Origin: Bacteroidales bacterium
GTDB taxonomy: Bacteria; Bacteroidota; Bacteroidia; Bacteroidales; UBA932
Direction: 5' to 3'
Length of the DNA: 64,000 nt
NCBI GenBank assembly: GCA_017561665.1
Contig: JAFZBQ010000081.1
Location: 23,881-87,880 of the forward strand
Made by a program: the position numbers and the translations under genes. This document shows, piece by piece, positions 33,015-49,236 of this stretch. Position 1 is the first letter of the stretch, and every line of letters begins with the position of its first letter. Under the pieces are notes generated by a model that saw nothing but the letters and a program-made list of their open reading frames with translations, did not search any database and had not been told where the DNA came from.

Positions 33015-33045
33015 AGCGGGTTCGGCGGCGATACGGGCATAAAAT

Positions 33046-33546: not shown

Positions 33547-34530
33547 ATGGCAACTATAGACAAGCTTCTTGCCGTGATTGAACGGTACAAGAACCTGGGC
33601 ATTGATTCGCAGATAGACTACGACAAGTTCTACCTGTATTCCATCATTACTCATTCCACGGCAATCGAAGGCTCAACAGTAACCGAGTTTGAGAACCAGA
33701 TGCTGTTCGACGAAGGCATTTCCGCCAAGGGCAAAACCATTGTCGAGCAGATGATGAACCTTGACCTTAAACGAGCCTACGAAGAGAGTATATCCCTGGC
33801 AAAAAAGCATACCCCGTTCAGCATCGATATGCTGTGCCAACTGGCACACCTTGTTATGGAACACACCGGTGCGACATACAAGACCGCCCTCGGAGATTTC
33901 TCCTCCGCCAATGGCGATTTGCGACTATTGAACGTCACCGCAGGTGTCGGTGGACAATCATATATGAGCTATCAGAAAGTACCGGCAAAACTGGAAGAGT
34001 TCTGCAAATGGCTGAACGCCGAAAGGGGGAAAGATCTCAATACCGCGCAGAGATACAACCTGAGCTTCGAGGCCCACTACAGGCTCGTAACAATTCACCC
34101 CTGGGCAGATGGTAATGGGCGTATGGCCCGATTGGTGATGAACCATCTCCAGTTTGAATTCGGCCTGGTTCCTACCAAGGTTTTAAAAGAAGACAAGGGT
34201 GATTACATCAATGCCCTCATCAATACCAGAGAATCCGGAGACATTGCCATCTTCCAAGAGTTTATGGTTGCGGAGATGGTCAAAACTTTGACCAAGGACA
34301 TTGACTTATTCGTCAAATCGACAGAAGAAGAAAGTAGGGAGAATAAGCCAAAAAGTAGGGAGAAAATTCTGGAGTTACTGCGAATTCATCCAGAGTACAC
34401 CACCGCCATCCTTGCGAAGGAAATCGGCGTCACCTCCAAAGCTATCGAAAAACAACTGGCCATCCTCAAGAAAGAAGGTCTCCTCCGCCGCGAAGGCTCC
34501 GACCGGAAAGGCAGATGGGTGGTGAAATAA
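33547..34530 (+). CDS. Fic family protein (class II, N-terminal inhibitory helix) with C-terminal winged-helix
   Basis: Fic motif HPWADGNGRMAR, inhibitory-type motif STAIEG near the N-terminus, and a C-terminal wHTH-like tail (ILELLRIHPEYTTAILAKEIGVTSKAIEKQLAILKKEGLLRREG). Confidence 0.85.
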   Translation: MATIDKLLAVIERYKNLGIDSQIDYDKFYLYSIITHSTAIEGSTVTEFENQMLFDEGISAKGKTIVEQMMNLDLKRAYEESISLAKKHTPFSIDMLCQLAHLVMEHTGATYKTALGDFSSANGDLRLLNVTAGVGGQSYMSYQKVPAKLEEFCKWLNAERGKDLNTAQRYNLSFEAHYRLVTIHPWADGNGRMARLVMNHLQFEFGLVPTKVLKEDKGDYINALINTRESGDIAIFQEFMVAEMVKTLTKDIDLFVKSTEEESRENKPKSREKILELLRIHPEYTTAILAKEIGVTSKAIEKQLAILKKEGLLRREGSDRKGRWVVK

Positions 34531-34571
34531 TCAAAACATATTATCCACTAATAGTTTTTGTCAGTAATAAA

Positions 34572-35942
34572 TCATTTCATACAACTATCAACTGCTTTTT
34601 CATATTCTCTAACTAATAACACTACTCGATCAATATCAACAATAGTCGAGGTAAAAATAAAGTCTTTCGGTATCACCCCTATAGTCATATATACTCCAGC
34701 TCCAAAACGGGAAGGGCGCTCGATCGGCAACTTCATTTCTTCACATACTCTCAGTAACTTGTAATGATATCGGTTTCTGCATTCTGATGGATTATATTCT
34801 CCGTTATATTCAATCTTTACACAAAGCTTGCTTTGTTCAAACTGAAGATACATTCTGACCTCGTCATTCTCAACGAAATGCCACCAGAGCCCAAGGAAGC
34901 CACCAGATGGATTTGCGACATAGCTCCAACTTTCAACATCAATACATTTCTCTAGAGCGCGATAAAAACCTTGCCATTCGTACCATCTCCATTCATCAAC
35001 CGAAACACTTCGATAATTATTGGTTGCATCTTCTATATCCTGAAGATGCTTGCGGTAATCCAGTACTAAAGGATTTGATCCATAATAATAGTTCAAGATT
35101 CCCAATAAAGCACCTCTATCAACAACTGAATAACCTAATTCATTAACAGCTTTTGCAATAGAGCCCGCCTCATTTTCTGTTTTAACATATGCGTAGAATA
35201 GTTTATCACGTTTATTATGATACTCATCTTCCACAGTTTTCCTATATCGGCTCAATTGATTATCATGAACGTATGTTCCTATTTTGTCTTCAATGATGAG
35301 GAATGCATCATCATTAATCTCTGCCCATACATCGATGTTTTCCCACTGTCTTCCAACATCAATCTTGTGAATATCTTCTTTACTCATACCTGTGAGCAAT
35401 GCTACAAGCGACTTTCCCAGATTAGACAATCCTTCATCCGTGGCCAAATAAGAATCATCCGCCCACTTTATTAACCAAGCAAGGATTGCATCTTGACTTA
35501 ATTCTGATGTGGCATATGAAAAAATATTTGGTGCATTACTGTCTGCCACAGTTGCATAATTCCTCAAGTATTCTCCATTTAACAACTCAGATAGTTTTAA
35601 CAGTCTTGGAGCATATAACTCCATATTATCGCTAAGGAAACTATAAAGGAAAGCCAGATTATCCTCATTGACAACTTTCTCTTCCATCGAAGTCGGCTTC
35701 TTCCTTATTGTGGAAATAAGTAGTATTGCCAAATCTAGAACTCGCCATAAAGGTAATTCTTCGCTTTGTCTAGACCACCGTTTTCCATCCTCAGACCATC
35801 TCCAGACTTTAGCTGACACATCTTCTGGGTTCCAAGTTGCCCTGCCAAGAGAAATAAACTTTGCATCTCCTGCATTCGCATCTATTTCGGAATAGTCAAT
35901 AGAAACAATGGGTTTATGTTTCAGATGCCGCGGTATTTCCAT
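34572..35942 (-). CDS. PD-(D/E)XK nuclease-like protein with unknown N- and C-terminal regions (gene G)
   Basis: 456 aa. SELSQDAILAWLIKWAD ... ENIDVWAEINDDAFLIIEDKIGTYVHDNQLSRY fits the D...(D/E)xK core of PDDEXK-type families (memory). The N-terminal ~140 aa are unassigned. Confidence 0.6.
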   Translation of the reverse strand: MEIPRHLKHKPIVSIDYSEIDANAGDAKFISLGRATWNPEDVSAKVWRWSEDGKRWSRQSEELPLWRVLDLAILLISTIRKKPTSMEEKVVNEDNLAFLYSFLSDNMELYAPRLLKLSELLNGEYLRNYATVADSNAPNIFSYATSELSQDAILAWLIKWADDSYLATDEGLSNLGKSLVALLTGMSKEDIHKIDVGRQWENIDVWAEINDDAFLIIEDKIGTYVHDNQLSRYRKTVEDEYHNKRDKLFYAYVKTENEAGSIAKAVNELGYSVVDRGALLGILNYYYGSNPLVLDYRKHLQDIEDATNNYRSVSVDEWRWYEWQGFYRALEKCIDVESWSYVANPSGGFLGLWWHFVENDEVRMYLQFEQSKLCVKIEYNGEYNPSECRNRYHYKLLRVCEEMKLPIERPSRFGAGVYMTIGVIPKDFIFTSTIVDIDRVVLLVREYEKAVDSCMK

Positions 35943-36727: not shown

Positions 36728-37507
36728 TCATATTATAATCTTCCATCCCTTTCGTTTAGCGAGGATATCCCAATCGCCGGGGACGTCGGCTGGTATAATG
36801 ATTTGTGGCGGATTGTCAAACAGATCATGTCGATGAAACTGCGGAAGTTTTGAGAACAAGTGGAGTAGCCAGTCTGAATTAATTGGATTTCCTCCTATGT
36901 TTATGCTTTTAATGTTTGGATTAACGTCGCTGACAAATACTTGTTTTAAGCGATTTAATTCAAGGCTAATGTGTTCTGTTCTTTGAATGTTAAGCAGATA
37001 GCATTCTGTTAAGTTTTGACCACTACAAATGAAGGATTTGCATTCTCCGAAGATGTATATGGGCGAGTTTGTGTCATGCTTTACTGTAATTTCACATATT
37101 CGGTTCTCATCATAATCTAACCCTATCGTTAATTCCGCATAACGGTGCTTTAGTGTTGTTACTATTCTCAACGGAGTCAGCGGCATAATGGACATTTCAA
37201 TAGACGATCTGGGACTATTGAGCACTATTGAGGGATTAGATTGTTTAGCGTGCACCATTCGCGATTTGGTATGTTCATAGAGTTCTCGCCGCAGCACCCC
37301 AAAATCCTTACTCGAATAACTCAATTCACATAAGGGCATGTCTTTCAATCCGCGCACTATGTCGTAATCTATTTTCCACTCCTTGCACAACTCCCGCCAG
37401 CCGTCTTTACGGCCAGCCAAGTATATTAATCGCTTCCTCATCTTGCCATTGGAAGCGACCTTCTCCTTGAAGTTAATCAGGTTAAGTTGTTTGCGAAATT
37501 CTTGCAT
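36728..37507 (-). CDS. LRR-like protein, paralog 1 (P1)
   Basis: 259 aa, roughly 40% identical by eye to 38174..38953. The C-terminal third is LRR-like (ISLELNRLKQVFVSDVNPNIKSINIGGNPI). Confidence 0.65.
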   Translation of the reverse strand: MQEFRKQLNLINFKEKVASNGKMRKRLIYLAGRKDGWRELCKEWKIDYDIVRGLKDMPLCELSYSSKDFGVLRRELYEHTKSRMVHAKQSNPSIVLNSPRSSIEMSIMPLTPLRIVTTLKHRYAELTIGLDYDENRICEITVKHDTNSPIYIFGECKSFICSGQNLTECYLLNIQRTEHISLELNRLKQVFVSDVNPNIKSINIGGNPINSDWLLHLFSKLPQFHRHDLFDNPPQIIIPADVPGDWDILAKRKGWKIII

Positions 37508-37588
37508 GGCGCGATACTAATCATCGTTAATGCCATTATCTAGCAGTGTAATTAATTGCCTGTGAACTACGATGAAATCCCACACGAA

Positions 37589-37660: not shown

Positions 37661-37993
37661 ATGAGTAAAGCAATTGAATTTCTGAATGCGCACAAGTCCC
37701 CCACTAATGCAAAGTGGCGCGAAGAAGCTCAGTGGCGGAAGGATAATGAGTACTGGCTAAAGTATGCGCAGATAATCACTCTGGCAGTACATAAAAGCAT
37801 GGACGAGAACAACCTGACCCAAGCTCAATTAGCAGAGAGGATGGGTTGTACCCAGCAATACGTATCCAATCTTCTGAAGGGTAACACCAACATGACAATC
37901 GAAACTATTGCTCGTCTTGAGATTGCCCTAAATTTAGATCTTATCAAGACTGCTCTATCCTCAGTTCTATCGGCTAGGACAACAAAAACTTAG
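37661..37993 (+). CDS. XRE-family HTH transcriptional regulator
   Basis: 110 aa. LTQAQLAERMGCTQQYVSNLLKGNTNMTIETIARLEIAL is a typical HTH_3. Confidence 0.8.
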   Translation: MSKAIEFLNAHKSPTNAKWREEAQWRKDNEYWLKYAQIITLAVHKSMDENNLTQAQLAERMGCTQQYVSNLLKGNTNMTIETIARLEIALNLDLIKTALSSVLSARTTKT

Positions 37994-38173: not shown

Positions 38174-38953
38174 TCACTTATTGGAACCCAATACACGCCA
38201 TCCACGTCTTTCTGCAAGTGCCTTCCAATTTCCGGGAATACCAGAGAAAGAGATAACATGTACTTCATCAGGATTCTTCTTACGGTCCACGTAAGGCAGT
38301 TGAGAGATAAAACCAGGGATATAGCCTTCATCGAGAGGGTTATCCGCAAGAATTACCACTGCCAATTTGGGATTGATGCTACCAATGGGAATTGTGGTTA
38401 ACCGGTTCCCGGTCAACCAAATCCCTTCCAACCTGGGGTTATTAAGCAAATAGCACTCTGTCAACTCTTGGCCACCGCATTGAAACATTATAAAATCCCC
38501 AAAAATGTATATCGGCGAGCCCGAATCATGGTTAATTAATGGACATGCCAAATGGATACCGGCAGGTTGTACCACGTACTCAGAATAGCGATGTTGTTTA
38601 GTCGTTACTATCCGCAATGGGGCTAATGGCTTAAAGTACATTTGAATTTTCTTCTGGGGGCTGTTTAGAATAATGGCAGGACCGCACTCCCTTGCATTTA
38701 TCATACGCTGCTTGGTCGCTTCATACAACCTATACCGCATTTCCATAAAGTCATTTGAGAGATAGTTCAACTCTGAGATAGACATATTCTTTAGCCCACA
38801 CAATACGTCATAATCTTCCATCCACTCCTTACTCAACTCCAGCCAGCCATCCTCCTTCCCAAGAAGCTCTACTATTCGATCTCGTTTCTTTGGTGTGTTG
38901 GTAATCTTCTTTTTTAAGTTAATCAGTTCTAACTGTTTACGAAAAGTATCCAT
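38174..38953 (-). CDS. LRR-like protein, paralog 2 (P2)
   Basis: 259 aa. LTGNRLTTIPIGSINPKLAVVILADNPL is a canonical LRR pattern. Shared blocks with P1: FRKQL.LIN, PL.PLRIVTT, SPIYIFG, LTECYLLN. Confidence 0.65.
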   Translation of the reverse strand: MDTFRKQLELINLKKKITNTPKKRDRIVELLGKEDGWLELSKEWMEDYDVLCGLKNMSISELNYLSNDFMEMRYRLYEATKQRMINARECGPAIILNSPQKKIQMYFKPLAPLRIVTTKQHRYSEYVVQPAGIHLACPLINHDSGSPIYIFGDFIMFQCGGQELTECYLLNNPRLEGIWLTGNRLTTIPIGSINPKLAVVILADNPLDEGYIPGFISQLPYVDRKKNPDEVHVISFSGIPGNWKALAERRGWRVLGSNK

Positions 38954-38972
38954 AATAGCCGATGTCTAATAG

Positions 38973-39443
38973 CTAATCTCCCCAAGTCATCATTCTTTCT
39001 GAGAGGATCTTCCAGAACAGCATCCAGGCCTTGTCGAAGCGCAAGCGCTGGGGTTCAGACCAGAAGATTTCTCCGTGGTAATTTGTGCTGGGAATGCGTG
39101 CACGGTTGCGCATATTGACATAGTGTTTGAAAGACTCAGGCTTGGGTTGCCAATCATCTTCCAACTCGTACTCATAGTCCTTTTCGCCACCCTTAGCCTT
39201 GATGATATCCATCATCTTCTGTGCGCATTGTATCTGATTGGCATAGTAGGGGCCATTGGCCGCGTATGACAAGTGCCGGTTGTACCGCTCCATTGTTTCG
39301 AGCTTAGCCCTTATGACTTCAAGAAGGTATTCGTAGTCCCAGTCTTCGTTGAAAGCCATTCTCCAGCGTCTTTCTGCCCATTCATGATGGAACTGCATTT
39401 CTCTTTGGCGTTCTGTTGCTTGTTGTTTGTTATAGTGTGCCAT
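38973..39443 (-). CDS. Hypothetical Trp/Tyr-rich protein (gene B)
   Basis: 156-aa ORF, 3 nt downstream of gene A and 19 nt upstream of P2. No family recognised. Confidence 0.6.
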   Translation of the reverse strand: MAHYNKQQATERQREMQFHHEWAERRWRMAFNEDWDYEYLLEVIRAKLETMERYNRHLSYAANGPYYANQIQCAQKMMDIIKAKGGEKDYEYELEDDWQPKPESFKHYVNMRNRARIPSTNYHGEIFWSEPQRLRFDKAWMLFWKILSERMMTWGD

Positions 39444-39446
39444 ATC

Positions 39447-40241
39447 TTAGTCTTTGCTTGGTTCTATTAATGAGTAACGATTCCCAGCCTGATCGGACCT
39501 TTGCCGGTGCACTATTTTGACTTCGCACCAGAAATCGTTCATTCGAAGAAGGTCGGGTAGTGAATAGCACTTATGCACGCACAGGTCGTGCACTGCATGA
39601 CAGATGCAGATGTCTTTGAACTGCTCGCGTGTCAGAGCTCCCGCTGCCCATGAATTGCCATCATCGAGATAGTTTTCCAAACCGAATTCACTAACGGGCA
39701 TTTCCGGACGGTGTTCAAGATCGAATGTGGTTCTGCAGAAAGCGCATTCCGGCTCGTATATAGCCACATAATAATCATAGAGTATCTCAAGCATTGTCAC
39801 GTAATCTGAGCCATATATGTCGCTTATCTGATAGCCATTTTTCAGCTCCTCTTCTTTCCATATTATTGAATCATCCCAACGGCAGAACACATAGCCAACA
39901 GTCCCTTCAATTGATATCATATCGTCAAACTCCTTATCATAGCCGCCATTCAGTATAGCACGGTAAAGATTGCTGGCTTTAGAATACATCTGGCGAGTCA
40001 GCTCGGTCAAACGAGTGTTTACCTTTTCAAAGCCGGCCACCTCTTCAGGAGTGCAGAGAAACATATCATTAAGCAGATTGGAGCGCTCCTGGAGCAATTC
40101 CTTCAATCTCTCTTTTGTTTCTGTATCCCATTTGAAAGACTGGCTTGTATAAGGCCATCCGCCACCACCAATGAAGTAGTTCGCCACCTGTTTTATTTGC
40201 TTTTCAAGACTCGTTAATTGCTGTTTCTGTTGCATATTCAT
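39447..40241 (-). CDS. Hypothetical protein with C-terminal Cys/His cluster (gene A)
   Basis: 264-aa ORF, first gene of a tight three-gene operon. Has CAFC ... CICHAVHDLCVHKC. No family recognised. Confidence 0.6.
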   Translation of the reverse strand: MNMQQKQQLTSLEKQIKQVANYFIGGGGWPYTSQSFKWDTETKERLKELLQERSNLLNDMFLCTPEEVAGFEKVNTRLTELTRQMYSKASNLYRAILNGGYDKEFDDMISIEGTVGYVFCRWDDSIIWKEEELKNGYQISDIYGSDYVTMLEILYDYYVAIYEPECAFCRTTFDLEHRPEMPVSEFGLENYLDDGNSWAAGALTREQFKDICICHAVHDLCVHKCYSLPDLLRMNDFWCEVKIVHRQRSDQAGNRYSLIEPSKD

Positions 40242-40279: not shown

Positions 40280-40344
40280 CTATGCCAAAAAGTGGCAGTC
40301 AAAGAAAATGGGAGTAAAAGATAGACTGCCGGAAAATGGCAGTC
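40280..40344. promoter_or_regulatory. Palindromic operator sites 2 and 3 in the divergent promoter region
   Basis: Site 2 at 40280-40300 is CTATGCC-aaaaagt-GGCAGTC, 38 nt from ATG 40241 on the minus strand. Site 3 at 40324-40344 is GACTGCC-ggaaaat-GGCAGTC, perfect, 41 nt from ATG 40386. Confidence 0.6.
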
Positions 40345-40385
40345 ACGCAATATTCCTTGCGCTCAAAATCAAACAATATCGAATT

Positions 40386-40997
40386 ATGAATGTATTTGAA
40401 CCACAGTTTTACCCCTTCACTCTACCAAACGCCTTTCATTTGCTTATTGCAGGTAATTCAAGGCAAGAAGTAGATTACTTCATCAATCAGACTATCAAGT
40501 CTCTGCATCCAAATGAATCGAACAATGAGCCTTGCTCAACGACATTCCTTGACACGCGAGAGATGCCATTACCCATTATTAACGACAAACTTAATGCTGT
40601 AATAGAAGGTCTCGAGTTAAGATACAAACGGCAAAAGATGGAACATTTTTTAACGGTCATTATAAATGATTTTGCAGACATAGTGCCTGATCAGGCGACC
40701 TTTAAATCGATGGTAAAGATTGCAGAAAAAGGACGGCGTGTAGGCATACACTTGATTGCAGGCACCAGCCATATTAATGAAGATGTCATTACCGGCCAGA
40801 TCAAGGCTCTGTTTCCAACAAGGCTCGCACTTCACACATCAAACAGAAAACAATCCAAGTTGGTTTTAGACTGTGCCGGTGCAGAACTACTGGCCGATCA
40901 CGGAGAGTGTTTATTATTTCACATAGATACCGTTTCTCACTGTCTTTATGATGATCCTGATGCAGTCGGTTCAATTAATAACAATGAACATGAATAG
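40386..40997 (+). CDS. FtsK/SpoIIIE-like P-loop domain protein with degenerate Walker A and B motifs
   Basis: ORF 40308..40997 trimmed to ATG 40386. HLLIAGNSRQEVD sits where FtsK has HLLIAGATGSGKS. VIINDFADI replaces the Walker B pattern (hhhhDExxD). IAEKGRRVGIHLIAGTSHINEDVITGQIKALFPTRLALHTSNRKQSKLVLDCAGAELL parallels the FtsK motor core. Confidence 0.6.
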   Translation: MNVFEPQFYPFTLPNAFHLLIAGNSRQEVDYFINQTIKSLHPNESNNEPCSTTFLDTREMPLPIINDKLNAVIEGLELRYKRQKMEHFLTVIINDFADIVPDQATFKSMVKIAEKGRRVGIHLIAGTSHINEDVITGQIKALFPTRLALHTSNRKQSKLVLDCAGAELLADHGECLLFHIDTVSHCLYDDPDAVGSINNNEHE

Positions 40998-41187
40998 ACT
41001 TGAGGATAACAGAGTAATCCTTGATAAACTCGGTAAACTGATAGAAACATACCCGGATCAACGCTTCGGGCAGTTAATTGCTAACTATATATTTCCAAAA
41101 TACCGGGAGGAGGATATCTTTTGGGAAGAGTCTGAAGAAACTGCACAAAGGGTGACTTCTTTCAGCCAGAAAGAACAATCAGAATAA
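40984..41187 (+). CDS. Small hypothetical protein, start overlapping the FtsK-like stop
   Basis: About 67 aa (MNMNRLEDNRVILDKLGKLIETYPDQRFGQLIANYIF...). ATG 40984 (or 40990) overlaps stop 40995-40997, which suggests translational coupling. Confidence 0.5.
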   Translation: MNMNRLEDNRVILDKLGKLIETYPDQRFGQLIANYIFPKYREEDIFWEESEETAQRVTSFSQKEQSE

Positions 41188-41201
41188 TTAATCAATTTAA
41201 C

Positions 41202-41222
41202 CACTGCCATATTTTGGCAATT
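41202..41222. promoter_or_regulatory. Palindromic operator site 4 (CACTGCC-atatttt-GGCAATT)
   Basis: Ends 38 nt before the WYL ATG. Shares an identical 20-mer with site 1. Confidence 0.6.
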
Positions 41223-41260
41223 TTATTGATTATATTCGCGGTGAAATAACAGAAACGACT

Positions 41261-42169
41261 ATGGCGAAGAACTTTTTCAAACGTTACATTTGGCTTATTG
41301 ATCTGCTGTACAAGCGCGGGCACGCGACCTTTGAACAGATAAGCCGTGCGTGGGCGTTCAGCCACGTGAATGAGACCGGTGAAAGTAGTCTACCGCAACG
41401 CACATTCTTTAACCACATAGCGGCTATAGAGGATATCTTTGACATAGTCATTAAGTGCAACCGCACCTCCGGCGAATATTTCATTGCAAATACAGACGAC
41501 CTGGAGGGCGACGGCATCCGCAACTGGCTGCTGCAGTCCATATCGCTGAATAACCTGCTTGAAGAGAGTGCCGGGATGCGCGACCGAATCCTCTTCGAAA
41601 AGGTGCCGTCCAGCCAAGATTGGCTGACGGATATTATTGATGCTATGCGTGCCGACAGAGCAATCGAGTTGACCTATCAGAGTTTCCATCGCAACGAGCC
41701 ATCAACCTTCATTGCACATCCATACTGCCTCAAACTGTTCAAGCAGCGTTGGTATCTGCTGGCTCGAAGCGAAGAGTACAAACAGCCTAGAATCTATGCG
41801 CTGGACCGTATCCACAACATCCAGCCGAGCGAAATCAAATTGAAGTTACCCCGCAAGTTCGATGCGGAGAAGTTCTTCGACAACTACTTTGGAATAATTG
41901 CAGACACCGAAGTCTATGCACAAACAGTCAAAATTAAGGTTGATGAGGATCAGGTTGGATATTTCAATTCGCTGCCGCTCCATCATTCACAGAAGGAGAT
42001 TGAGACTACCGATGAGTACTCCATTTTCGAGTATAAACTTGCGCCGACATTTGATTTCGAGCAGGAAATCCTATCCCATGGACCATCGGTCGAGGTGTTG
42101 GAACCTGCCGGCTTACGCGATTGGGTCGCTTCCGATGCGACAAAAATGGCAAGCATTTACATTAAGTAG
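41261..42169 (+). CDS. HTH-WYL domain transcriptional regulator
   Basis: 302 aa. N-terminal wHTH-like segment (YIWLIDLLYKRGHATFEQISRAW). WYL-domain core AIELTYQSFHRNEPSTFIAHPYCLKLFKQRWYLLARSEEYKQPRIYALDRI. Confidence 0.8.
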   Translation: MAKNFFKRYIWLIDLLYKRGHATFEQISRAWAFSHVNETGESSLPQRTFFNHIAAIEDIFDIVIKCNRTSGEYFIANTDDLEGDGIRNWLLQSISLNNLLEESAGMRDRILFEKVPSSQDWLTDIIDAMRADRAIELTYQSFHRNEPSTFIAHPYCLKLFKQRWYLLARSEEYKQPRIYALDRIHNIQPSEIKLKLPRKFDAEKFFDNYFGIIADTEVYAQTVKIKVDEDQVGYFNSLPLHHSQKEIETTDEYSIFEYKLAPTFDFEQEILSHGPSVEVLEPAGLRDWVASDATKMASIYIK

Positions 42170-42172
42170 TCT

Positions 42173-42667
42173 ATGACCGACTTTGCCGCGATAGATTTCG
42201 AGACTGCGAACGAGTGCCCTTCAAGCGTGTGCAGCGTGGGTGTCGTGGTGGTGCGCGACGGCATCGTAACGGACAAATTCTACAGCCTGATACATCCTGA
42301 GCCGGAGTACTACAAGTGGTTTTGCCAGCAGGTCCACGGGCTCTGCCCGGAAGACACGGAAGATGCACCGGTTTTCCCCTATGTGTGGGAAAAGATTGAG
42401 CCGCTTATAGAGGGCCTGCCGCTGGTTGCACATAACGCCCGGTTCGACGAAGGGTGCCTCAAGTCGGTTTTCCGTGTATATCGGATGGATTATCCGGATT
42501 ATGTCTTCTACGATACGCTGACCGCTTCCCGCAGGCATTTCGGCCAGTGTCTTCCCAATCACCAGCTCCATACGGTGGCAGAAGCCTGCGGCTTCGACCT
42601 TAGGCATCATCACCACGCCCTGGCCGATGCCGAAGCTTGCGCGCACATCGCGTTGCAATTACTATAA
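42173..42667 (+). CDS. DEDDh 3'-5' exonuclease (DnaQ/epsilon-like)
   Basis: 164 aa. ExoI AIDFETAN, ExoII VAHNARFDEGCL, ExoIII HHALADAEA. Starts 3 nt after the WYL stop. GC looks core-like again. Confidence 0.85.
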   Translation: MTDFAAIDFETANECPSSVCSVGVVVVRDGIVTDKFYSLIHPEPEYYKWFCQQVHGLCPEDTEDAPVFPYVWEKIEPLIEGLPLVAHNARFDEGCLKSVFRVYRMDYPDYVFYDTLTASRRHFGQCLPNHQLHTVAEACGFDLRHHHHALADAEACAHIALQLL

Positions 42668-42744: not shown

Positions 42745-43932
42745 ATGAAGAAGCTTATCCTTTTATTATGTTGTTGCCTTGCCGCGGCTTGCTCCCCAAA
42801 CAAACAAGAAAAAGCCGTTCCTCATATACCCATTCTGGGATGGTATAGTATTCCTCCCGGCGAACACGCTACCCTTGAACATTATCGCGAGATGCGTGAG
42901 GCAGGATTCGACTTTTCTTTCGCACATATTTATAGCTACGAGGATGCCATACAGGCACTTGATCTTTGTGCCCAAGTGGGTATGAAATCAATTTTCATGT
43001 GCCCCGAGTTGAAGACAGCACCTGAAGAGACAGTCGACAAAGTAATGAATCATCCGGGATTGGGCGGCTATTTTCTCTGTGACGAGCCCGGCAACGATTC
43101 GCTGGATGCTATTGGCGAATGGGCTAGCCGCATCTATAGTGTTGATAGCATACATCCTTGTTATTTGAACTTATTGCCCGTACAGGCTTTCGGGCATGAC
43201 GCATATGTAGAGCACTTAGAGCTGTTTAATAAGAAAGTGAATCTTCCGCAATTATCCTTCGACAATTACCCGGTTCACATTGGTCCCGATCATTGTTTAC
43301 TCAGTCCTTATTGGTATGACAATTTGGAACTAATCAGTGCCGAATGCAGACGTACAGGTAAGCCCTTCTGGGCGTTTGCCTTAGCCACTGCCCATGGTCC
43401 TTACCCTATCCCCACTATCGACCATTTGCGATTGCAGATGTACAGCAACTTGGCATATGGTGCACAACTGCTTCAATACTTCACCTATTGGAATCCAGGT
43501 ACTGAGCAATGGGATTTTCATCAGGCGCCCATCACAATCGACGGCCATCGTTCCCCTGTTTATGAACTGGTACGTCAGATCAACGAAGAGATTCAGAAGC
43601 GTGCCTTCGTGTGGGATGGTTGCACCGTAAAGCGAGTCAGTCACATAGCCGAAACCGTCCCCGTTGGCACCCACCCCTTAACGCAACTCCCTTCACATTT
43701 TACCAAGATACAAAGCGAGAAAGGATGCGGATTGGTCTCTGAAATCAAAAACGGGGATCGTCACTTTGTAATGTTTGTCAACACCAGTCCTGCAGAAGAG
43801 TGGCGCGTGCAAATCCAAACCGACGACTGTGTGCAATTGGTGCGGCTCGACGGCACAAGCGTTCCTGCCCAAGCCTATGACCAGTTGTTTATTCTCAGTC
43901 CCGGCAACTGCGATATCTTTGAAGTGAAATAA
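42745..43932 (+). CDS. Lipoprotein, putative TIM-barrel glycoside hydrolase of unassigned family
   Basis: 395 aa with lipobox LAAAC. Has FLCDEPG and SFDNYP segments reminiscent of GH42-like barrels (weak, from memory). A TATATTTG box lies at 42696-42703. Confidence 0.5.
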   Translation: MKKLILLLCCCLAAACSPNKQEKAVPHIPILGWYSIPPGEHATLEHYREMREAGFDFSFAHIYSYEDAIQALDLCAQVGMKSIFMCPELKTAPEETVDKVMNHPGLGGYFLCDEPGNDSLDAIGEWASRIYSVDSIHPCYLNLLPVQAFGHDAYVEHLELFNKKVNLPQLSFDNYPVHIGPDHCLLSPYWYDNLELISAECRRTGKPFWAFALATAHGPYPIPTIDHLRLQMYSNLAYGAQLLQYFTYWNPGTEQWDFHQAPITIDGHRSPVYELVRQINEEIQKRAFVWDGCTVKRVSHIAETVPVGTHPLTQLPSHFTKIQSEKGCGLVSEIKNGDRHFVMFVNTSPAEEWRVQIQTDDCVQLVRLDGTSVPAQAYDQLFILSPGNCDIFEVK

Positions 43933-43934: not shown

Positions 43935-45938
43935 ATGAATATGCTTGTCCGAAGACCTTTACGCATTGGCATCCTTGTATTTATCGCATTGACAATGACT
44001 GTCAATGGATATGCTGCCGGACATAATCAGAGAGACACCTCTTTGTTTCGTATGATGATAAGATTATGGCCGGAGCATCATATGGATCCGGAACTCTCGC
44101 AGCAACTGATTGACGCATTGCTTCAATATGATTTCTGTGACGAAGTGTGGTTCTGCGGAAGTCTTCCCGCAACCAGATGTCTTGCATTTCACGATTCATC
44201 GGCTACCCAGATGGGTATTATGGCAGACCGTCTTCGCAGAATTGGCATCATCCCATCCCTTCAAGTAGTTGTGATTGGCCACGGCGACAGCGCAACTGTA
44301 TTTAGTCCAGATGGCTATCAAAAAGATTCCACCATCCATTGGGGAACAATGGTGGGGGCAAACGGAGAAAAGACTATGTCGGTCAACTGCCCACGGCAGG
44401 AGGCATATTTGGCCTTTATGGAAAAAGCATTCGTCCCATATGCAAAGGCTTGCCAACCATACAGCTTGTATCTGGATGATGATATGAGGATGTCGCAGCA
44501 TCCACCGGCAATGGAGGGATGCTTCTGCGAAACGTGCATCTCTCTTTTCAACAATGAATACGGATATGATTTTAACAGGGAGGCACTTGTTGAAGCATTG
44601 GACCGAAATGACGGAGAAGGAACTCTGCGACGCCAGTGGATTGCCTTTGGACAGGAAAGCCTGGCCAATTTGGCAAGAGTAATTGCCCGAAGTGTTCACA
44701 AAGTATCTCCGGGGACCAGGGTCGGGCTTCAACACAACTATTTCCATCACAATATGCTTGAGGGATGGGACTGGATTCCTATGCTGAAGGCGATGGAAGA
44801 AGAAACCGGTCTCGTTCCTCCTGTCCGGCCGGGAGAATTGTTCTACAGCGATGCGTCACCAAGAGGCATATTAAAAAAAGGTTTGGAGATAGCTCGTGAA
44901 ATACGGCGGCTGCCGGATGATGTCGTAGAAATCGCGCCTGAGGTTGAAGGATACTTGCACAAGGCGACCGGAAAGTCCGCACAAGGAGTCTGTCTGGAGA
45001 CACTTTATTACCTTGCAATGGGTGCGACACAGATGAGTTATGCCATTATTTGTTCAGCAGAAGAACCTATGGATTGGTACGCAAGCCATTATTTTAAGTC
45101 GCTTGCTGAGCTGAAACCCTTTGCCAAGGATTATGCCGACTTCAACTTGAATGCAATGCCGACCGGAATAGATCCTTATATGAGCCCCAACTTGTGCGTA
45201 CGAAATGTCCGGCCAGGAGAACGTCCATGGGCTTGGACATATACCAACGCTGGCAATACCGCTTTCGGGATTGCGCATCTGGGGCTTCCTTTCGCGCCAG
45301 AAGATCCTCACAGTCCTGTATTGATGGTCGATAACGAATGTGCCGCAGGTATGAACGATCAGGAGACTTCCGAACTGCTAACTCGGAAGAATATTGTTAC
45401 CGATGCGCATACATGGAGTCAATGGGCGCAGCGTGGTCTACTGGAAGGATATCTGGATGTTTCCCCGCAAATAATTGATGATGTAACGATAGATGGCGCA
45501 AGGCTACAGAGAGCGTGGAATCAAATCGCCCTGAAAATATCCGGAAGCGGAAGGAGAATTGCCGTAGTACCGTCGTTCAATTCCGACATTAACGGTGCCG
45601 AGCAGCTTGTACTGTCGCAGGTATTTGACTGGGCCTCCGGGAACACCCTTCAATCAGTTTTGGAAAGTGTTGCCCAAGTTGCAATAGTTCCACGGTCGGA
45701 CACACAGGGACGGCTTCGCTCCATATCGCTACTGTCTTGTTCTCTCGCAGAAGAGGAGCACTTGAAACTTCGCATACGCCCCCTCGGGACGTATGATGAT
45801 CACCTACCGAAGAAGTATGTATGGAAGCGACCGGGGAAACGCGACATCCGGCTCAAGGCCAAATTCGAAGGCACTGATGTCATTTTGGATATTCCCTCTC
45901 TGGGCGGGTGGGAATTCGGCTGGATTAAAATCAATTAA
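43935..45938 (+). CDS. Secreted hypothetical protein, possibly carbohydrate-active
   Basis: 667 aa with a signal-like N-terminus. Starts 2 nt after the previous gene. No family recognised. Confidence 0.55.
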   Translation: MNMLVRRPLRIGILVFIALTMTVNGYAAGHNQRDTSLFRMMIRLWPEHHMDPELSQQLIDALLQYDFCDEVWFCGSLPATRCLAFHDSSATQMGIMADRLRRIGIIPSLQVVVIGHGDSATVFSPDGYQKDSTIHWGTMVGANGEKTMSVNCPRQEAYLAFMEKAFVPYAKACQPYSLYLDDDMRMSQHPPAMEGCFCETCISLFNNEYGYDFNREALVEALDRNDGEGTLRRQWIAFGQESLANLARVIARSVHKVSPGTRVGLQHNYFHHNMLEGWDWIPMLKAMEEETGLVPPVRPGELFYSDASPRGILKKGLEIAREIRRLPDDVVEIAPEVEGYLHKATGKSAQGVCLETLYYLAMGATQMSYAIICSAEEPMDWYASHYFKSLAELKPFAKDYADFNLNAMPTGIDPYMSPNLCVRNVRPGERPWAWTYTNAGNTAFGIAHLGLPFAPEDPHSPVLMVDNECAAGMNDQETSELLTRKNIVTDAHTWSQWAQRGLLEGYLDVSPQIIDDVTIDGARLQRAWNQIALKISGSGRRIAVVPSFNSDINGAEQLVLSQVFDWASGNTLQSVLESVAQVAIVPRSDTQGRLRSISLLSCSLAEEEHLKLRIRPLGTYDDHLPKKYVWKRPGKRDIRLKAKFEGTDVILDIPSLGGWEFGWIKIN

Positions 45939-48900
45939 ACACGTCAATGGACACGGGGCCGAGAAGGCCTGAATCGTGTAATGGACTGCCGGCTTCAGGT
46001 CCGGCGATTGTCCAAGTCTTCCTGAGTGGTTCCGGTTGGGACGCATCGTAGGCCAGACGGTTGTACCAGGTGCTTGTCACATAAACGGTCAGGGTATTCT
46101 TTCCTTCGGTAATCAAATAGCTGATATCCATCCGGTAAGGGGGTGTCCAGCGGACGCCGGCACTCTTCCCGTTTACTATCACATCCGCAATCATTTCTAC
46201 GTTACCGAGATTCAATACCATTTCTTTCCCAATCAGATCTTTATTTACTTCAAAGCGAGTCTCGTAGGTAGCAGTCCCGGAGAAGGCTTTGCCCTCGTCT
46301 CCAAGGTCAAGATCCTTCCACGGCCTCAGGTCATCAAGAGTAATCGGACCACCAATAATTCCCCATCCTTCCGGGAAACTTACACGCCAGTCTTCCAGTT
46401 TGATGCTTGTCAGACGCCGTTTTTCTTCGAAAGCCCTTGTCCGAGAGGCCACAGGCCTGGAAGATCGTCCCCGGAAAACAACAAAACCGCTTTCTGCTCG
46501 TTCCAGATCAAGGGTGATTGTTTTCATTCGTCCCCATCCTTTGGTTCTAAGAGACTTGATGGTGCCATCTACGGGATTCCACCATTCTGCCCTGCCCTTA
46601 CCTTCCAGGCGGACCGGGCCGTGGAAACCACCACCAACCGGAGCGGCGAGGTAATACCAGCGCGCTCCGTCTATGGTTCTTTCTGACCAAAGGACACTGG
46701 CTCCATTATCCCAGAAATGCGGCTTGAGTCCTAATGCCTTCAAAGCATCGGCCAACTTCATTCCGACAACCAGATAACCCTTACCCACCTTGTTAACCCC
46801 CTCTACGGTTGCACCCCACAGGTCGGACACTGCACTTTCCAATAGTTTGTCAGCATCATCTTTCAAAGTTGCAGGAGATATAGGGGCGTTTGCTATGACT
46901 TTTGCTCCGTTTCGAACCAACTCTTCAATTTTCCTAACTGTCTCGGGCAGCATTCTCTCGTTTTCGGGAATCCATAGCACCTCATAAGAAACACCTTCCG
47001 GAGTGCAAATCTTCCCGTTTTCTACACCCAGTCTTCTGAGCAGTACATCCGGATTGCAGTAATCATATTTGAATCCGTCCGGGAAACGGATACTCCCACT
47101 CTGGCGACCGCCATTGCCCGTATGTTGGAAAGGTTTATGACCCACTTCATCACCAAGATACCACAATACATCTGAAACAGGCCGGCCTCTCTCCAGCAAA
47201 TAACTTGTCCTGGCGAGGTATTGCGTAAACCAGGGCATATATTTCCACCATGTCTGTCCCCTGAGGAATGGTGTGCCGATTGCACTGCCGAATGTGGTTC
47301 CGGGTGGGAGAAAGCCGATTTGGGGATTATGGGTGTATTCTGCGAACACATTATGAGTAACACCCTCCGACATATTGAGGTTCGCCACCTCTTTCAGAAC
47401 CTGCCAGTGCTCATCCCAAGAAAGATTGAAACTTGTAAAGCTTTCTGCCGCAACCCTTGGCTTTCCGTAGATGTGTGCAGCGGAAGCAGTAGGTTTTATG
47501 GGTTTGAAATCCAGATCACCGACATAACCCACCGCAATGGGCTGGAAGAATTCACACATAGGGACATCCGCGTATTGGAAGTATGCAAGGGGATCCATCG
47601 TAACGACATCCGCCCCTGCGGTTTCGTATTGTACTCCCAGACCCTTTTCGTGTGCGAGATCCGTCATCTTCTTGAAAAAGTTTTCGCGGTACAATACATC
47701 CACGAATCTTCTCCAGTCAATCAGGAACCTGCTCGTCTCTTCTTGGCTGTCAACAACATAACCTATGATTGCGGGCAGTCTGTCTTTCAAGGAATACCCG
47801 ACGGATGATTGAAACATCTCCTCCATATTCGACGTCCAGGTCTGGGTTCGGCATTCCCAGCTGTCCATCAACATCCCTTTTGCCTTTCCGTTTAAAGGGC
47901 CGTCCTGCAACCTGCCGACATAGTTAATGAACTGTATTTCTGCAGCCTCTGCATCAAACTTGTTGCATTCCCAGCCGGTAGCTTCTGGCGTCGTTGGTCC
48001 GTTTTTCCTGCCCGAGTTCACATGTCCGAATCTCAGTATCGTCCACTTCCCTTCAGGATAATTTCCTTCCGGGGCTGTCCAATCGAGCTTTCCGTTCGCA
48101 TCCATTTTGTCCGTGACGTCCAGAATCTCCCCGGAATTGATGAATGCCAAAGGGTTCTGACACGTATGCTCCTGACAGGGTTCTTTGGCGAGCAAAGTCC
48201 ATCCTGCCTCGCCCTGCCAACAATTTTTGTGAGCAGCTGACATAAATTCCACGAAGGACAGGATTCCTGGATGAGCATTAATCACAGTGAAGGTATAATA
48301 ATCGGCATTCTCGATCTCGTTGCACGCCAATTCAAAGTCAATCGGGACACCATCCTGCCAATTACTCATCGGTAAATCGGCGTCCGCCAGTATATGCTCC
48401 TTGTCTGCAACTGTAGCCGTGAGTTTGATACGTATTCCTGGGTCATAGCACCAGGCATCAGAAATGCTGTTGATAGGCGGAAGATGAATCGTTCGGATTA
48501 CTTCTCCCTCTTTAAGGGAAAACCTTACCACATTAGTAAAACCGGCGTTCAAGATGACGCCACCATTCGAACCCTCTATCATAGCCTTCCACTGGTCATC
48601 ACAGGCCTCCAGGACTGTTGGCTTAAGTCTTTCGCCCGTATCCCCAAGCGGTGTCGGAAAGGCCAGAACGCAAATGTCACGGTAGTCTCTCCACTCTTCG
48701 ACAGAAGGTTCTCCCCTGGGTATGGATATGTTTGGTTTATGTCCGCAATCGACATCCGTCCTGGACCATACCAGTTGTCTCATTGCTTTTTCCGGTTTGA
48801 TCCAAGGGCCGCCGGCCATCGACCAGCCAGGGCAAGTCTGGAGCGCAAAACGCAGGCCGAGGCTGTCTGCCTTTTGCCCGAGGTATCCGACGATATCTTC

Positions 48901-49236
48901 CCATTCAGGAGACAATGCCCTTATCTGCCGTTCTGTCGCAGGCCAGACACCTCCATCTCCATGGAACCATTGAATACCGGAAAAGCCTGCATAGGAAATG
49001 GCTTTCAAGTCGGCATCGATTCCCTCTTTTGATATATTACCGCCGATAAAATAGAACCATATCTCAGGGGAAAAGACCTTATCCGGCTCCCTGAACGAAT
49101 CCTCGTCATCTGGAGAAAATGGGCGTGTAAGTGTTTCTATATCAGGAGCAATTGACACAATTTGGGTTTGTGCTCCGACCTGCAATGAAAACACTACCAG
49201 AAATGATGACAGAATTATTTGCAGAAACCGCTTCAT
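45931..49236 (-). CDS. GH106-like glycoside hydrolase (putative alpha-L-rhamnosidase)
   Basis: 1101 aa with a signal peptide. The N-terminal block PEIWFYFIGGNISKEGIDADLKAISYAGFSGIQWF and the C-terminal jelly-roll (FSGTATYETRFEV...NLGNVEMIADVIVNGKSAG) match my memory of GH106 proteins. Confidence 0.6.
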   Translation of the reverse strand: MKRFLQIILSSFLVVFSLQVGAQTQIVSIAPDIETLTRPFSPDDEDSFREPDKVFSPEIWFYFIGGNISKEGIDADLKAISYAGFSGIQWFHGDGGVWPATERQIRALSPEWEDIVGYLGQKADSLGLRFALQTCPGWSMAGGPWIKPEKAMRQLVWSRTDVDCGHKPNISIPRGEPSVEEWRDYRDICVLAFPTPLGDTGERLKPTVLEACDDQWKAMIEGSNGGVILNAGFTNVVRFSLKEGEVIRTIHLPPINSISDAWCYDPGIRIKLTATVADKEHILADADLPMSNWQDGVPIDFELACNEIENADYYTFTVINAHPGILSFVEFMSAAHKNCWQGEAGWTLLAKEPCQEHTCQNPLAFINSGEILDVTDKMDANGKLDWTAPEGNYPEGKWTILRFGHVNSGRKNGPTTPEATGWECNKFDAEAAEIQFINYVGRLQDGPLNGKAKGMLMDSWECRTQTWTSNMEEMFQSSVGYSLKDRLPAIIGYVVDSQEETSRFLIDWRRFVDVLYRENFFKKMTDLAHEKGLGVQYETAGADVVTMDPLAYFQYADVPMCEFFQPIAVGYVGDLDFKPIKPTASAAHIYGKPRVAAESFTSFNLSWDEHWQVLKEVANLNMSEGVTHNVFAEYTHNPQIGFLPPGTTFGSAIGTPFLRGQTWWKYMPWFTQYLARTSYLLERGRPVSDVLWYLGDEVGHKPFQHTGNGGRQSGSIRFPDGFKYDYCNPDVLLRRLGVENGKICTPEGVSYEVLWIPENERMLPETVRKIEELVRNGAKVIANAPISPATLKDDADKLLESAVSDLWGATVEGVNKVGKGYLVVGMKLADALKALGLKPHFWDNGASVLWSERTIDGARWYYLAAPVGGGFHGPVRLEGKGRAEWWNPVDGTIKSLRTKGWGRMKTITLDLERAESGFVVFRGRSSRPVASRTRAFEEKRRLTSIKLEDWRVSFPEGWGIIGGPITLDDLRPWKDLDLGDEGKAFSGTATYETRFEVNKDLIGKEMVLNLGNVEMIADVIVNGKSAGVRWTPPYRMDISYLITEGKNTLTVYVTSTWYNRLAYDASQPEPLRKTWTIAGPEAGSPLHDSGLLGPVSIDVFN

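Follow-up and report, generated by a model that had tools for sequence, protein, structure and literature searches.

Activators with a WYL domain that sense single-stranded DNA (ssDNA) run DNA-damage regulons in several phyla, and one of them, DdaA, also controls a defence regulon (PMC12392091, PMC11662680). The site of the activator DriD is the pseudo-palindrome ATACGAC-N7-GTCGTAT, which overlaps the -35 element at an identical spacing to the -10 element in all regulated promoters (PMC13004042). The boxes of BrxR, on the other hand, have arms of 10-11 bp and a spacer of 5 bp, lie downstream of the -10 element and act as a roadblock (PMC9122601). Here we describe a locus in which a degenerate domain of the FtsK type is linked to a WYL regulator. 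It lies in a stretch of 64,000 nucleotides (hereafter the window) from a Bacteroidales bacterium (assembly GCA_017561665.1, contig JAFZBQ010000081.1, positions 23,881 to 87,880 of the forward strand) and comprises four genes on the + strand: an FtsK-like open reading frame (ORF) at 40386-40997, a small ORF at 40990-41187, a gene for a WYL-WCX transcription factor at 41261-42169, and a gene for a DEDDh 3'-5' exonuclease of the DnaQ/PolC type at 42173-42667. From the sequences compared we consider it likely that the FtsK-like protein is a pseudo-ATPase retained in a regulon of the WYL protein, and we lean, though only slightly, towards a WYL-controlled DNA-damage or defence regulon as the best overall reading. 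A preliminary description of this DNA had listed the four genes and a palindrome in front of the first one; each of these elements is present at its place, and Pfam confirmed that the WYL gene and the exonuclease gene follow the FtsK-like gene in the same orientation.

The relationship with FtsK, which the preliminary description had proposed for a protein of 204 aa (203 aa plus the stop codon, as it turned out), was recovered by profile and by fold searches. The protein matched the FtsK motor domain 2ius of the PDB (E=1.1e-14), the FtsK model of NCBIfam (2.3e-13) and the FtsK/SpoIIIE family of PHROG (1.7e-15). Against Pfam it gave no match at E<=0.1, PF01580 included, and stays below the gathering threshold; a cluster of the family, P0003, has PF01580 on record, as a 'faint' match only. 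An AlphaFold2 model built on an alignment of 60 sequences reached a mean predicted local distance difference test score (pLDDT) of 83 and a predicted template modelling score (pTM) of 0.82, and its top matches in Foldseek were the FtsK motor domains of Escherichia coli and Pseudomonas aeruginosa (E 9e-13, TMq ~0.7), followed below FtsK by TcpA, the ATPase domains of EccC/EssC, and HerA. Judging by this model, the 203-aa protein is a complete beta (RecA-like) motor domain of FtsK. The fold search on a model had been suggested as a check, and it bore out both the FtsK fold and the loss of the P-loop. The 203 aa span the beta domain alone, so that the absence of N-terminal and gamma domains had been read correctly: the alpha domain, the gamma domain (which binds the FtsK-orienting polar sequences) and the transmembrane/N-terminal membrane domain are all lacking.

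To follow the fate of individual residues, the family alignment was mapped onto the numbering of P. aeruginosa FtsK (PaFtsK), where R620 is the arginine finger and K657/R661 and R632/K643 belong to the DNA loops (Jean et al. 2020, PMC7321959); the roles of E596, T630/Q631 and R632 come from a molecular dynamics study (PMC9410874). The genomic contexts of the FtsK-like family all come from short metagenomic contigs of ENA, Logan or JGI (loci are numbered L001 onwards), and the sample of the FtsK-like family consists of seven distinct sequences in eight distinct contexts. The seven coding sequences are that of the window and those of six contigs, L002 being a duplicate of L001 and the copy of L032 being indistinguishable from that of L029. 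The Walker A motif, GxxxxGK[ST] in active motors, is lost, reading AGNSRQEVD in the window protein and AG[ND]S[RG]QEVD in all seven sequences; the Q of this segment is the Q of the Bacteroidetes-type P-loop AGATGQGKS. The Walker B aspartate D595 has become N94 and the catalytic glutamate E596 has become D95 (DE to ND, both lost), in a motif that reads IINDFAD and with N94-D95 invariant in the family. Both degenerate motifs had been read in this way before. The losses go beyond them, because the phosphosensor Q631 is replaced by S128 and the arginine R632, which grips DNA in loop II, by H129 (S in some copies). The arginine finger that acts in trans, R620, is nevertheless kept as R117, invariant in the family and present also in most degenerate relatives. 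Likewise K643 of loop II (K140) and the conserved core residue R649 (R146) are invariant, whereas T630 (T127), K657 of loop I (R/K154) and the core motif GAExL (as GAELL) are kept. With Lys and Ser/Thr of Walker A, Asp of Walker B, the catalytic Glu and the phosphosensor Gln all gone, the protein is predicted to be incapable of ATP binding or hydrolysis at its own site, and a grip on DNA in the manner of FtsK is unlikely from the residues that remain. These losses, together with the retained arginine finger, suggest a protein that would act on another motor rather than on DNA.

Proteins with such losses could be the products of a decaying gene. In this case the FtsK-like ORF would be a fragment of a once-active FtsK paralogue with no function at the protein level, and its truncation in comparison with relatives of 327 and 428 aa, together with the disappearance of all catalytic residues, is in line with that idea. 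Selection was estimated by pairwise Nei-Gojobori ratios of nonsynonymous to synonymous substitution rates (dN/dS), and the value of the FtsK-like gene is about six times that of the adjoining WYL gene (0.03), which could also be expected of decay. Furthermore, the family is rare, with five clusters at 90% identity among 5.8 billion proteins and a single representative cluster at 50% identity among 1.84 billion. However, the seven distinct sequences are all full length (199-206 aa), and stop codons or frameshifts were found in none of the seven, at dS values of up to 0.95. The median dN/dS was 0.20 (range 0.11-0.49), with 0.22 for the half that contains the former P-loop and 0.16 for the core, and dN amounted to only 0.06-0.09 of the dS of the adjacent WYL gene. 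The start, the length and the C-terminus are conserved, the arginine finger and the core motifs are invariant, and in front of the gene an operator and a promoter of its own are conserved. A gene call of 114 aa in L032 looked truncated, but the DNA there encodes an intact ORF of 203 aa. The FtsK-like gene is retained under purifying selection, and because seven distinct sequences are intact with a median dN/dS of 0.20 we reject the pseudogene explanation, to which we give very little credit. The claim of an intact ORF that encodes a retained and probably non-hydrolysing protein of FtsK fold agrees with the loss of the catalytic motifs and with the selection on the gene. The homologues, moreover, are related to FtsK and are not mere fragments without conserved neighbours.

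When the same genome pairs were compared over 40386-42169 (window with L001, L003, L020 and L029), the dS of the FtsK-like gene was 1.2-6 times below that of the WYL gene; for window and L001 the values were 0.12 and 0.73, respectively. This suggests either a recent exchange of the FtsK-like segment or a constraint on synonymous sites.

When contigs of GTDB representative genomes and of JGI metagenomes were scanned with the FtsK-like protein, nothing but ordinary FtsKs (28-39% identity) came up, and no close relative. With the FtsK-like profile, a scan of IMG/VR gave Bacteroidetes-type and other FtsKs, none with a WYL gene, the exonuclease or the operator nearby. Other clusters of degenerate FtsK-like proteins of about 200 aa (P0040, P0041, P0071 with MBQ7622623.1, and P0082 with MBR6001369.1) share 30-40% identity with the family and show separate patterns of motif loss; the named members of clusters of this type come from metagenome-assembled genomes (MAGs) of Bacteroidales. 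The exact protein of the window is recorded at NCBI as MBR5035017.1, from a Bacteroidales MAG, and is annotated there with 229 aa from a start at 40308, where the longest FtsK-like ORF opens. This public start probably lies 78 nt too far upstream, because the extension (40308-40385) holds the operator and the -7 box, and because the homologues all begin with MNVFEP, that is, at the start at 40386.

The palindrome in front of the FtsK-like gene, ACTGCC-GGAAAAT-GGCAGT (40325-40343, + strand), faces this gene and is followed by a -7-like box at about 40353-40361. It was described as a perfect operator palindrome 41 nt upstream; the palindrome is there, and its distance to the ATG is 42 nt. The pattern of its core has one match in the window against 0.05 expected. 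It had also been taken for an operator of the FtsK-like gene itself, and here the description has to be changed, since the palindrome belongs to a set that serves several promoters and reaches as far as 31.3 kb and the divergent operon at 38.2-40.2 kb. The related pattern TGCCA-N5-TGGCA occurs three times in the window (31310, 40283 and 41205) against 0.08 expected, a count that none of 100 shuffles reached; the palindrome of the FtsK-like gene (at 40327) is a one-base variant of it, and a degenerate fifth copy lies at 37531. The first of these sites, CTGCCATATTTTGGCAA at 31309-31325 on the + strand, has a -7-like box, TTCTTTGC (31337-31344), 11 nt downstream; the start codon that comes 49 nt after the site is that of an AAA+ ATPase gene (31374-33014, +, 546 aa, in an ORF that opens at 31341), which is a predicted member of the regulon. 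On the minus strand, CTGCCACTTTTTGGCAT (40282-40298) faces the divergent operon at 38174-40241 (-), made up of the genes p264 (39447-40241), p156 (38973-39443) and p259a (38174-38953), with a -7-like box TAGCTTCG at 40271-40264. A second CTGCCATATTTTGGCAA (41204-41220, +) precedes the WYL gene, with a -7 box TATATTCG at 41231-41238 and the ATG 41 nt downstream. The degenerate copy TGCCATTATCTAGCA, with one mismatch, occupies 37530-37547 between a gene for a 259-aa protein (36728-37507, -) and a helix-turn-helix (HTH) gene (37661-37993, +); the equivalent site of L001, at 2169, is perfect. The window operators precede at least four units, namely the AAA+ gene, the divergent p264-p156-p259a operon, the FtsK-like gene and the WYL-exonuclease pair.

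The same arrangement was found beyond the window. The operator of the FtsK-like gene is conserved in L003, L021, L029 and L032 and, with one mismatch, in L033, and that of the WYL gene is present in L001 (one mismatch), L003, L020, L029, L032, L034 and L035. In L034 operators precede five units: a PolIII-alpha-like gene, an operon with a DnaA-like AAA+ gene, an operon with a GyrB-like gene and a 428-aa FtsK, an AAA+ gene, and the WYL gene followed by a glycerate kinase gene and the exonuclease gene. Altogether, the window and nine related contigs yielded 23 sites (18 of them exact palindromes, five near-matches). Oriented towards the gene that follows, they share a promoter design: aCTGCC-N7-GGCA, a spacer of 9-12 nt (mostly 11) and a -7 box TAnnTT(T/C)G, with 20-30 nt more to the start codon at most of them. 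This box follows the -7 consensus of Bacteroides promoters. At all the listed sites the operator is upstream of the -7 box, never at it or downstream of it. The motif was absent from the unrelated loci that were fetched, save one match at chance level, and in 2.9 million viral contigs of IMG/VR the combination of operator and box gave a single match, probably by chance. The operator motif is specific to the loci of this system. Two other interpretations of these elements were discarded. Intrinsic terminators were ruled out because two copies lie back to back in divergent promoter regions, where there is nothing to terminate, and because for most copies a -7 box is 11 nt away (range 9-12); TGGCA...TTGC, considered by eye as a sigma-54 site, was dismissed, given that the spacing and the -12 element did not fit across the sites.

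The candidate for the binding of this operator is the WYL protein (302 aa), which matched WYL PF13280 (3.4e-18; 65.8 bits, cut-off 21.8) and WCX PF25583 (1.8e-12; 47.8 bits, cut-off 23.9) of Pfam and, in the WYL/WCX region only, PafBC (5.4e-5) and DriD (2.5e-3) of the PDB. Residues 1-80 are highly conserved and contain a pattern, LPxRTFxNH...IKCxR, which by eye resembles a winged HTH, with no profile match. R47, T48, F49, N51 and H52 are invariant across orthologues of 56-93% identity, and the pattern is kept even in orthologues that are 56-58% identical overall and share the operator. An N-terminal region that stays invariant in lineages that share the operator fits with the WYL protein as the binding protein, and it is probable, from this co-conservation, that it is the regulator of the operator set. 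The WYL-type control of the FtsK-like gene that had been proposed is thus backed by a shared operator, and the binding itself is deduced from co-occurrence. The exonuclease, a stand-alone domain of 164 aa, matched RNase_T PF00929 of Pfam (5.3e-16; 60 bits, cut-off 24), PRK06195 of NCBIfam (2.3e-42), the PolC exonuclease of the PDB (6.7e-12) and the PADLOC candidate PDC-S48 (3.8e-28). It has all five DEDDh residues, in Exo I (D8-F-E10-T), Exo II (H87-NARF-D92) and Exo III (H148-ALA-D152, within HHALADA at 147).

As regards the gene order, a WYL gene comes after the FtsK-like gene in seven of the eight distinct contexts, among them L001/L002, L003, L020, L029 and L032. The exonuclease gene comes after the WYL gene in L003, and its products in L003, L033 and L034 are about 81% identical to that of the window. 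The cluster is placed in differing chromosomal contexts among the contigs. The order of FtsK-like gene, WYL gene and exonuclease gene recurs in L033, where the FtsK-like protein is only 28% identical to that of the window. This protein, P0155, has 327 aa with alpha and beta domains, an intact Walker A motif (GITKQGKT), an intact DE and an intact TQRP. Its gene lies directly upstream of the genes for the WYL protein (56% identity to that of the window) and the exonuclease (82%), and is divergent from homologues of p264 (50%) and p156 (63%), as in the window. Since P0155 occupies the slot between the divergent p264/p156 operon and the WYL-exonuclease pair, the FtsK-like gene of the window is, judged by its neighbours, the positional orthologue of an FtsK-like gene whose catalytic motifs are intact. 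In L034 a soluble FtsK with alpha, beta and gamma domains (P0190, 428 aa, GATKQGKT) is encoded two genes upstream of the WYL gene; the gene between them, AAA547, is preceded by an operator, and its product is 56% identical to that of 31374-33014. P0049, P0155 and P0190 all keep a Walker A motif of the form GxTKQGKT, and P0155 (alpha and beta) and P0190 (alpha, beta and gamma) carry PF17854 and PF09397. A tblastn search of GenBank phages with P0190 and the WYL protein matched only unannotated fecal 'Bacteriophage sp.' fragments.

Several observations concern individual contigs. In L029 (3887-4156) and L032 (3898-4167) the exonuclease gene is truncated at its 5' end and cut to residues 75-164 (76% identity), followed by esterase/lipase genes; because of this remnant, the exonuclease appears to be dispensable in that lineage. 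In L022 (677-800) the operator after the FtsK-like gene is intact and a different gene (MEKTNLNDGLMAQ...) stands in the place of the WYL gene, which suggests gene swapping at a conserved operator/promoter cassette. In L003 the dead FtsK-like gene is preceded, at a distance of 1.8 kb, by the C-terminal end of an FtsK with a gamma domain (21-491), after which comes a gene for a 171-aa HExxH protein; that genome therefore carries a full FtsK-type motor and a dead paralogue close together. A 202-aa gene precedes the FtsK-like gene in L001, and the phage-like contig L031 has a gene of that size too, but the two are not related.

The small ORF is a different matter from the genes around it. The preliminary description saw an ORF of about 67 aa that begins at the stop of the FtsK-like gene, and it is a real gene, of 65 aa from the start conserved in its family (40990) or 67 aa if the start is 40984. 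Its family has 25 clusters, a conserved core YPDQRFGQLIANYIFPxYR and a dN/dS of 0.08-0.18. The overlap of its start with the TAG stop of the FtsK-like gene (ATGAATAG) is repeated in L020, L029 and L032, and L021 shows this junction where the contig breaks off. This conserved overlap, with both genes under purifying selection, could speak for a toxin-antitoxin or effector-immunity pair. The small ORF, however, is missing from L001/L002, L003 and L022, all of which have an intact FtsK-like gene, and so it is not an obligate partner: while a WYL gene accompanies nearly all the homologues, the small ORF is present in only about half of the loci. It matched no family of Pfam, NCBIfam, PHROG or PADLOC, those of toxins and antitoxins included, and its AlphaFold2 model was helical and of low confidence (pLDDT 70.6, pTM 0.40), with no match in BFVD. 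Moreover, relatives that are 52-71% identical lie between TyrRS and NAD synthase genes in the contigs L023-L031 (e.g. L023 6001-6195), of up to 259 kb, and one lies in an IMG/VR contig of 188 kb (L038 3001-3177); none of these relatives in phage-like contigs has an FtsK-like neighbour. The long contigs also carry genes for IF3, a sigma-70-type factor, SSB, a GH108 lysozyme, TelA and an IS605-family TnpB, and are probably huge phages. On this distribution the small ORF is regarded as a real, accessory and phage-related insert. Because it is an accessory insert in about half of the loci, the toxin-antitoxin explanation is unsupported, and we attach hardly any probability to it.

Returning to a WYL-controlled DNA-damage or defence regulon with a retained pseudo-ATPase, its working could be imagined as follows. 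The adjacent WYL-WCX protein would bind the CTGCC-N7-GGCAG operator and would turn the set on when ssDNA accumulates through DNA damage or through attack by phages or other mobile genetic elements, by analogy with DriD, PafBC and DdaA. A regulon triggered by ssDNA is favoured because the promoter design matches that of DriD and because ssDNA-sensing WYL activators run such regulons. By the same analogy, activation seems marginally the better guess than repression. The FtsK-like protein would be a non-catalytic subunit with no DNA translocation of its own, which may dock onto an active motor of the FtsK type (the FtsK of the cell or a soluble paralogue of the KQGKT type). There it may tune the translocation and segregation of DNA or bring them to a halt, at a time when other nucleic-acid enzymes and the DEDDh exonuclease, regulated along with it, would be at work. 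Docking on an active motor is the most economical proposal, because the arginine finger and the core interface are kept whereas the active site and the DNA grip are lost. Even so, we hold a role as motor modulator to be possible but rather doubtful.

A number of observations weigh against this reading. The exonuclease is truncated in L029/L032 and the WYL gene is replaced in L022, so the trio of genes is not obligate. The lower dS of the FtsK-like gene in comparison with that of the WYL gene inflates the confidence in a simple vertical history. No Pfam HTH was matched in the N-terminus of the WYL protein, even at E<=10, and the link between this protein and the operator comes from their occurrence together. 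By the geometry of the promoters alone, activation cannot be told from a repression that works by occluding the -33 element. Ring assembly may also have been abolished when the alpha domain and the loop II arginine were lost, for which reason heteromerisation with FtsK is speculative. Finally, the regulon carries a highly variable cargo with many nucleases and ATPases, and it sits in an AT-rich island that contains toxin-antitoxin and Fic genes; with this a defence island agrees no less well than a repair regulon.

According to this last alternative, the locus would be a defence island under a WYL repressor of the BrxR/CapW type, with variable effectors against phages or mobile elements that stay silent until infection. 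The effectors would be the FtsK-like protein, the DEDDh exonuclease, the AAA+ ATPase, a PD-(D/E)xK nuclease and the p264 operon, and the dead FtsK domain could sense phage proteins, act as a decoy for them or give the nuclease a scaffold. WYL regulators are indeed commonly found beside defence systems (PMC9122601, PMC11662680), and the region has a GC content of 0.446, compared with 0.544 in the left flank and 0.486 in the right one. Between a gene for a PBP4-type carboxypeptidase and the regulon lies an AT-rich island of toxin-antitoxin and defence-like genes (28514-35942), which holds RhuM and Fic (28514-29665), HigB/HigA (29770-30454), a ParE toxin (30978-31295), Fic with an HTH (33547-34530) and, on the minus strand, DUF6530 with PDDEXK_4 (34572-35942), this last one matching PDC-S26 of PADLOC at 1.2e-14. 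There are thus HigBA, ParE, two Fic proteins and a PDC-S26-like PD-(D/E)xK protein. Besides, the exonuclease matches PDC-S48, the genes beside the conserved operator vary strongly among genomes, and a phage-derived small ORF has been inserted at the locus. Against these points, no complete known defence system was recognised: on the window PADLOC returned single-domain or candidate matches only (mad8/SspH, PDC-S48, PDC-S26 and an IetA-like AAA), those to mad8/SspH being due to the generic FtsK core. The half-sites are 7 nt apart, and the -7 box comes after them at a short and nearly constant distance, an arrangement like that of the activator DriD and unlike that of BrxR; control by a repressor typical of defence islands is therefore less in keeping with the promoters than a DriD/PafBC-type activator. 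In addition, the regulon of L034 holds genes of replication type. We see the defence island as a possible explanation, though not a likely one; it does not exclude a DNA-damage regulon with a retained pseudo-ATPase, as DdaA controls both DNA-damage and defence genes (PMC12392091).

The replication-type genes deserve separate comment. In L034 (763-15549) an operator precedes the gene for a PolIII-alpha-like protein of 719 aa (556 bits, cut-off 1002) and another one precedes the gene for a 257-aa protein with only the AAA+ domain of DnaA, and a GyrB/ParE-like gene (625 aa; 376 bits, cut-off 740) heads the operon that ends with the soluble 428-aa FtsK. In L033 (2594-10487) an operon headed by an operator includes a 347-aa protein with only the C-terminal part of DnaB, the Walker A motif of which reads GCGRT (K replaced by R). 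Genes of PLD, Metallophos and PD-(D/E)xK families are present as well. With such content, the locus might be a remnant or domesticated replication-segregation module of an integrated phage-like element or integrative and conjugative element, with the WYL protein as the switch of the element and the FtsK-like gene as its degenerated translocase, kept for a structural role in its maintenance. The operators before the PolIII-alpha-like and DnaA/DnaC-like AAA+ genes (L034/L033), the GyrB-like gene (L034), the operon with the DnaB-like gene (L033) and the operon of the soluble FtsK, the epsilon-like exonuclease after the WYL gene, the differing chromosomal contexts and the low GC would all be in agreement. 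Nevertheless, integrase, transposase, capsid, terminase and conjugation genes were found neither in the island of the window nor in the related loci of 10-16 kb, the module was absent from the 2.9 million IMG/VR contigs, and no tRNA flanks the borders of the island. We regard this origin as quite unlikely.

The same genes allow a bolder version of the regulon, namely a WYL activator regulon built largely of truncated, divergent or dead paralogues of replication and segregation proteins, which on an ssDNA signal would join or cap the machines of the host as dominant-negative or decoy subunits, in an uncultured clade of Bacteroidales probably from rumen or gut. Its members would be the pseudo-ATPase with only the beta domain of FtsK, the C-terminal DnaB (K to R), the AAA+-only DnaA, the C-terminally short PolIII alpha, the GyrB-like protein and the epsilon-like exonuclease. 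If this were true, replication, chromosome segregation and division would be arrested by a new logic of checkpoint or abortive infection, a functional analogue of SulA, SidA and DidA but acting on DNA motors. At present we find it improbable.

Some other features of the window can be mentioned. The AAA+ protein of 31374-33014 has a Cdc48/VCP-like C-terminal domain with GPGTGKT (Pfam AAA 5.8e-24; Cdc48-like in the PDB 1e-22) and an N-terminal part of about 320 aa of no recognised type. The p264, p156 and 259-aa paralogues had no Pfam match and matched no known family; the two 259-aa proteins (36728-37507 and 38174-38953, both on the minus strand) are 44% identical, and one of them has a copy in L001 with 85% identity. 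The HTH gene at 37661-37993 (+) is of the Xre type. The GC content is 0.54 over positions 1-28000 and 0.49 over 42700-64000, and the tRNA-Arg genes (5211-5283 and 10469-10543) are far from the borders of the island. The right flank is rich in glycoside-hydrolase-like genes (e.g. 42745-43932 and 45931-49236).

Regarding the significance of the locus, it offers a testable regulon, in which the operator is precisely defined and both a candidate for the regulator and a series of target promoters are at hand. To our knowledge, the DNA-damage response of the Bacteroidales, a dominant order of gut and rumen, is poorly defined. Our literature searches found no WYL DNA-damage regulon described for Bacteroidota, the known ones being those of Actinobacteria, Caulobacter and Moraxellaceae. 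The FtsK-like protein is a clean natural case of a free-standing pseudoenzyme of FtsK fold, which would have shed ATP binding, catalysis and the main DNA grip while its arginine finger was selected, and it could give insight into the regulation or sabotage of FtsK-type translocases in bacteria that are stressed or infected. P0155, the orthologue with intact motifs in the same slot, provides a built-in comparison for what the dead version gained and lost.

In comparison with known systems, the nearest ones are DriD of Caulobacter, PafBC of Actinobacteria and DdaA of Moraxellaceae, which, as here, have a regulator with WYL and WCX domains and a palindrome with half-sites 7 nt apart, placed over the upstream promoter element at a nearly constant distance from the downstream one. 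As here, the same site precedes several units, that of the regulator among them, and the regulon includes nucleases and replication-type genes. The similarity to DriD and PafBC is very low, however (E 5e-5 to 2.5e-3, in the WYL/WCX region only). The half-site is CTGCC instead of ATACGAC, the promoters are of the Bacteroidetes -33/-7 type, and the cargo has a dead FtsK domain and lacks a small membrane protein like that of didA. What the locus has in common with the repressors BrxR and CapW is a WYL factor beside an AT-rich island that varies in content and encodes nucleases, ATPases and toxin-antitoxin systems, an operator palindrome before the gene of the regulator itself and more than one operator per island. 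In contrast to BrxR, the arms are of 5-6 bp, the spacer is of 5-7 nt and the position is upstream of the -7 box, and, unlike in the BrxR/CapW cases, no BREX, CBASS or other system recognised by PADLOC adjoins.

Regarding the protein itself, soluble forms of FtsK/SpoIIIE exist, such as SftA of Bacillus subtilis. The FtsK-like protein has the beta-domain fold of these translocases, about 40% identity from Walker B through the arginine finger to loop I, the equivalents of the arginine finger, K643, R649 and GAExL, and the Q of the Bacteroidetes-type P-loop; it differs from them in the lack of the alpha, gamma and transmembrane domains and in the replacement of the catalytic motifs and the loop II arginine. 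The degenerate nucleotide sites of EccC/EssC have regulatory or substrate-binding roles and not motor roles. The degenerate D2/D3 domains of these type VII secretion proteins share the FtsK fold and appeared among the fold matches, but in a membrane protein of Actinobacteria and Firmicutes they form a tandem fusion with an active D1 domain, whereas the protein described here is free-standing and has no type VII genes nearby. HerA-NurA, HerA-Sir2 and HerA-DUF4297 also link a P-loop domain of the HerA/FtsK superfamily genetically to a nuclease. In them, however, HerA is an active hexameric ATPase that works with NurA, Sir2 or DUF4297, while here the domain is dead and the nuclease is a DEDDh exonuclease encoded beyond the gene of the regulator. 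As a conceptual precedent, ImuA and ImuB are dead paralogues of enzymes of DNA metabolism that serve as essential non-catalytic subunits of the SOS-induced ImuA-ImuB-DnaE2 mutasome (PMC6511836); there is no relation in sequence or fold, and the cluster described here has no Y-family polymerase. Full-text literature searches (WYL, FtsK, exonuclease, Bacteroidetes, pseudo-ATPase) found no description of an FtsK-like/WYL/exonuclease architecture, in agreement with the preliminary description, which knew of no defence or toxin-antitoxin system of this kind. What was already known is the type of regulator and the concept of a WYL regulon; what is new is the free-standing dead FtsK domain, its conserved linkage with a WYL regulator and a DEDDh exonuclease, and the operator and regulon in Bacteroidales.

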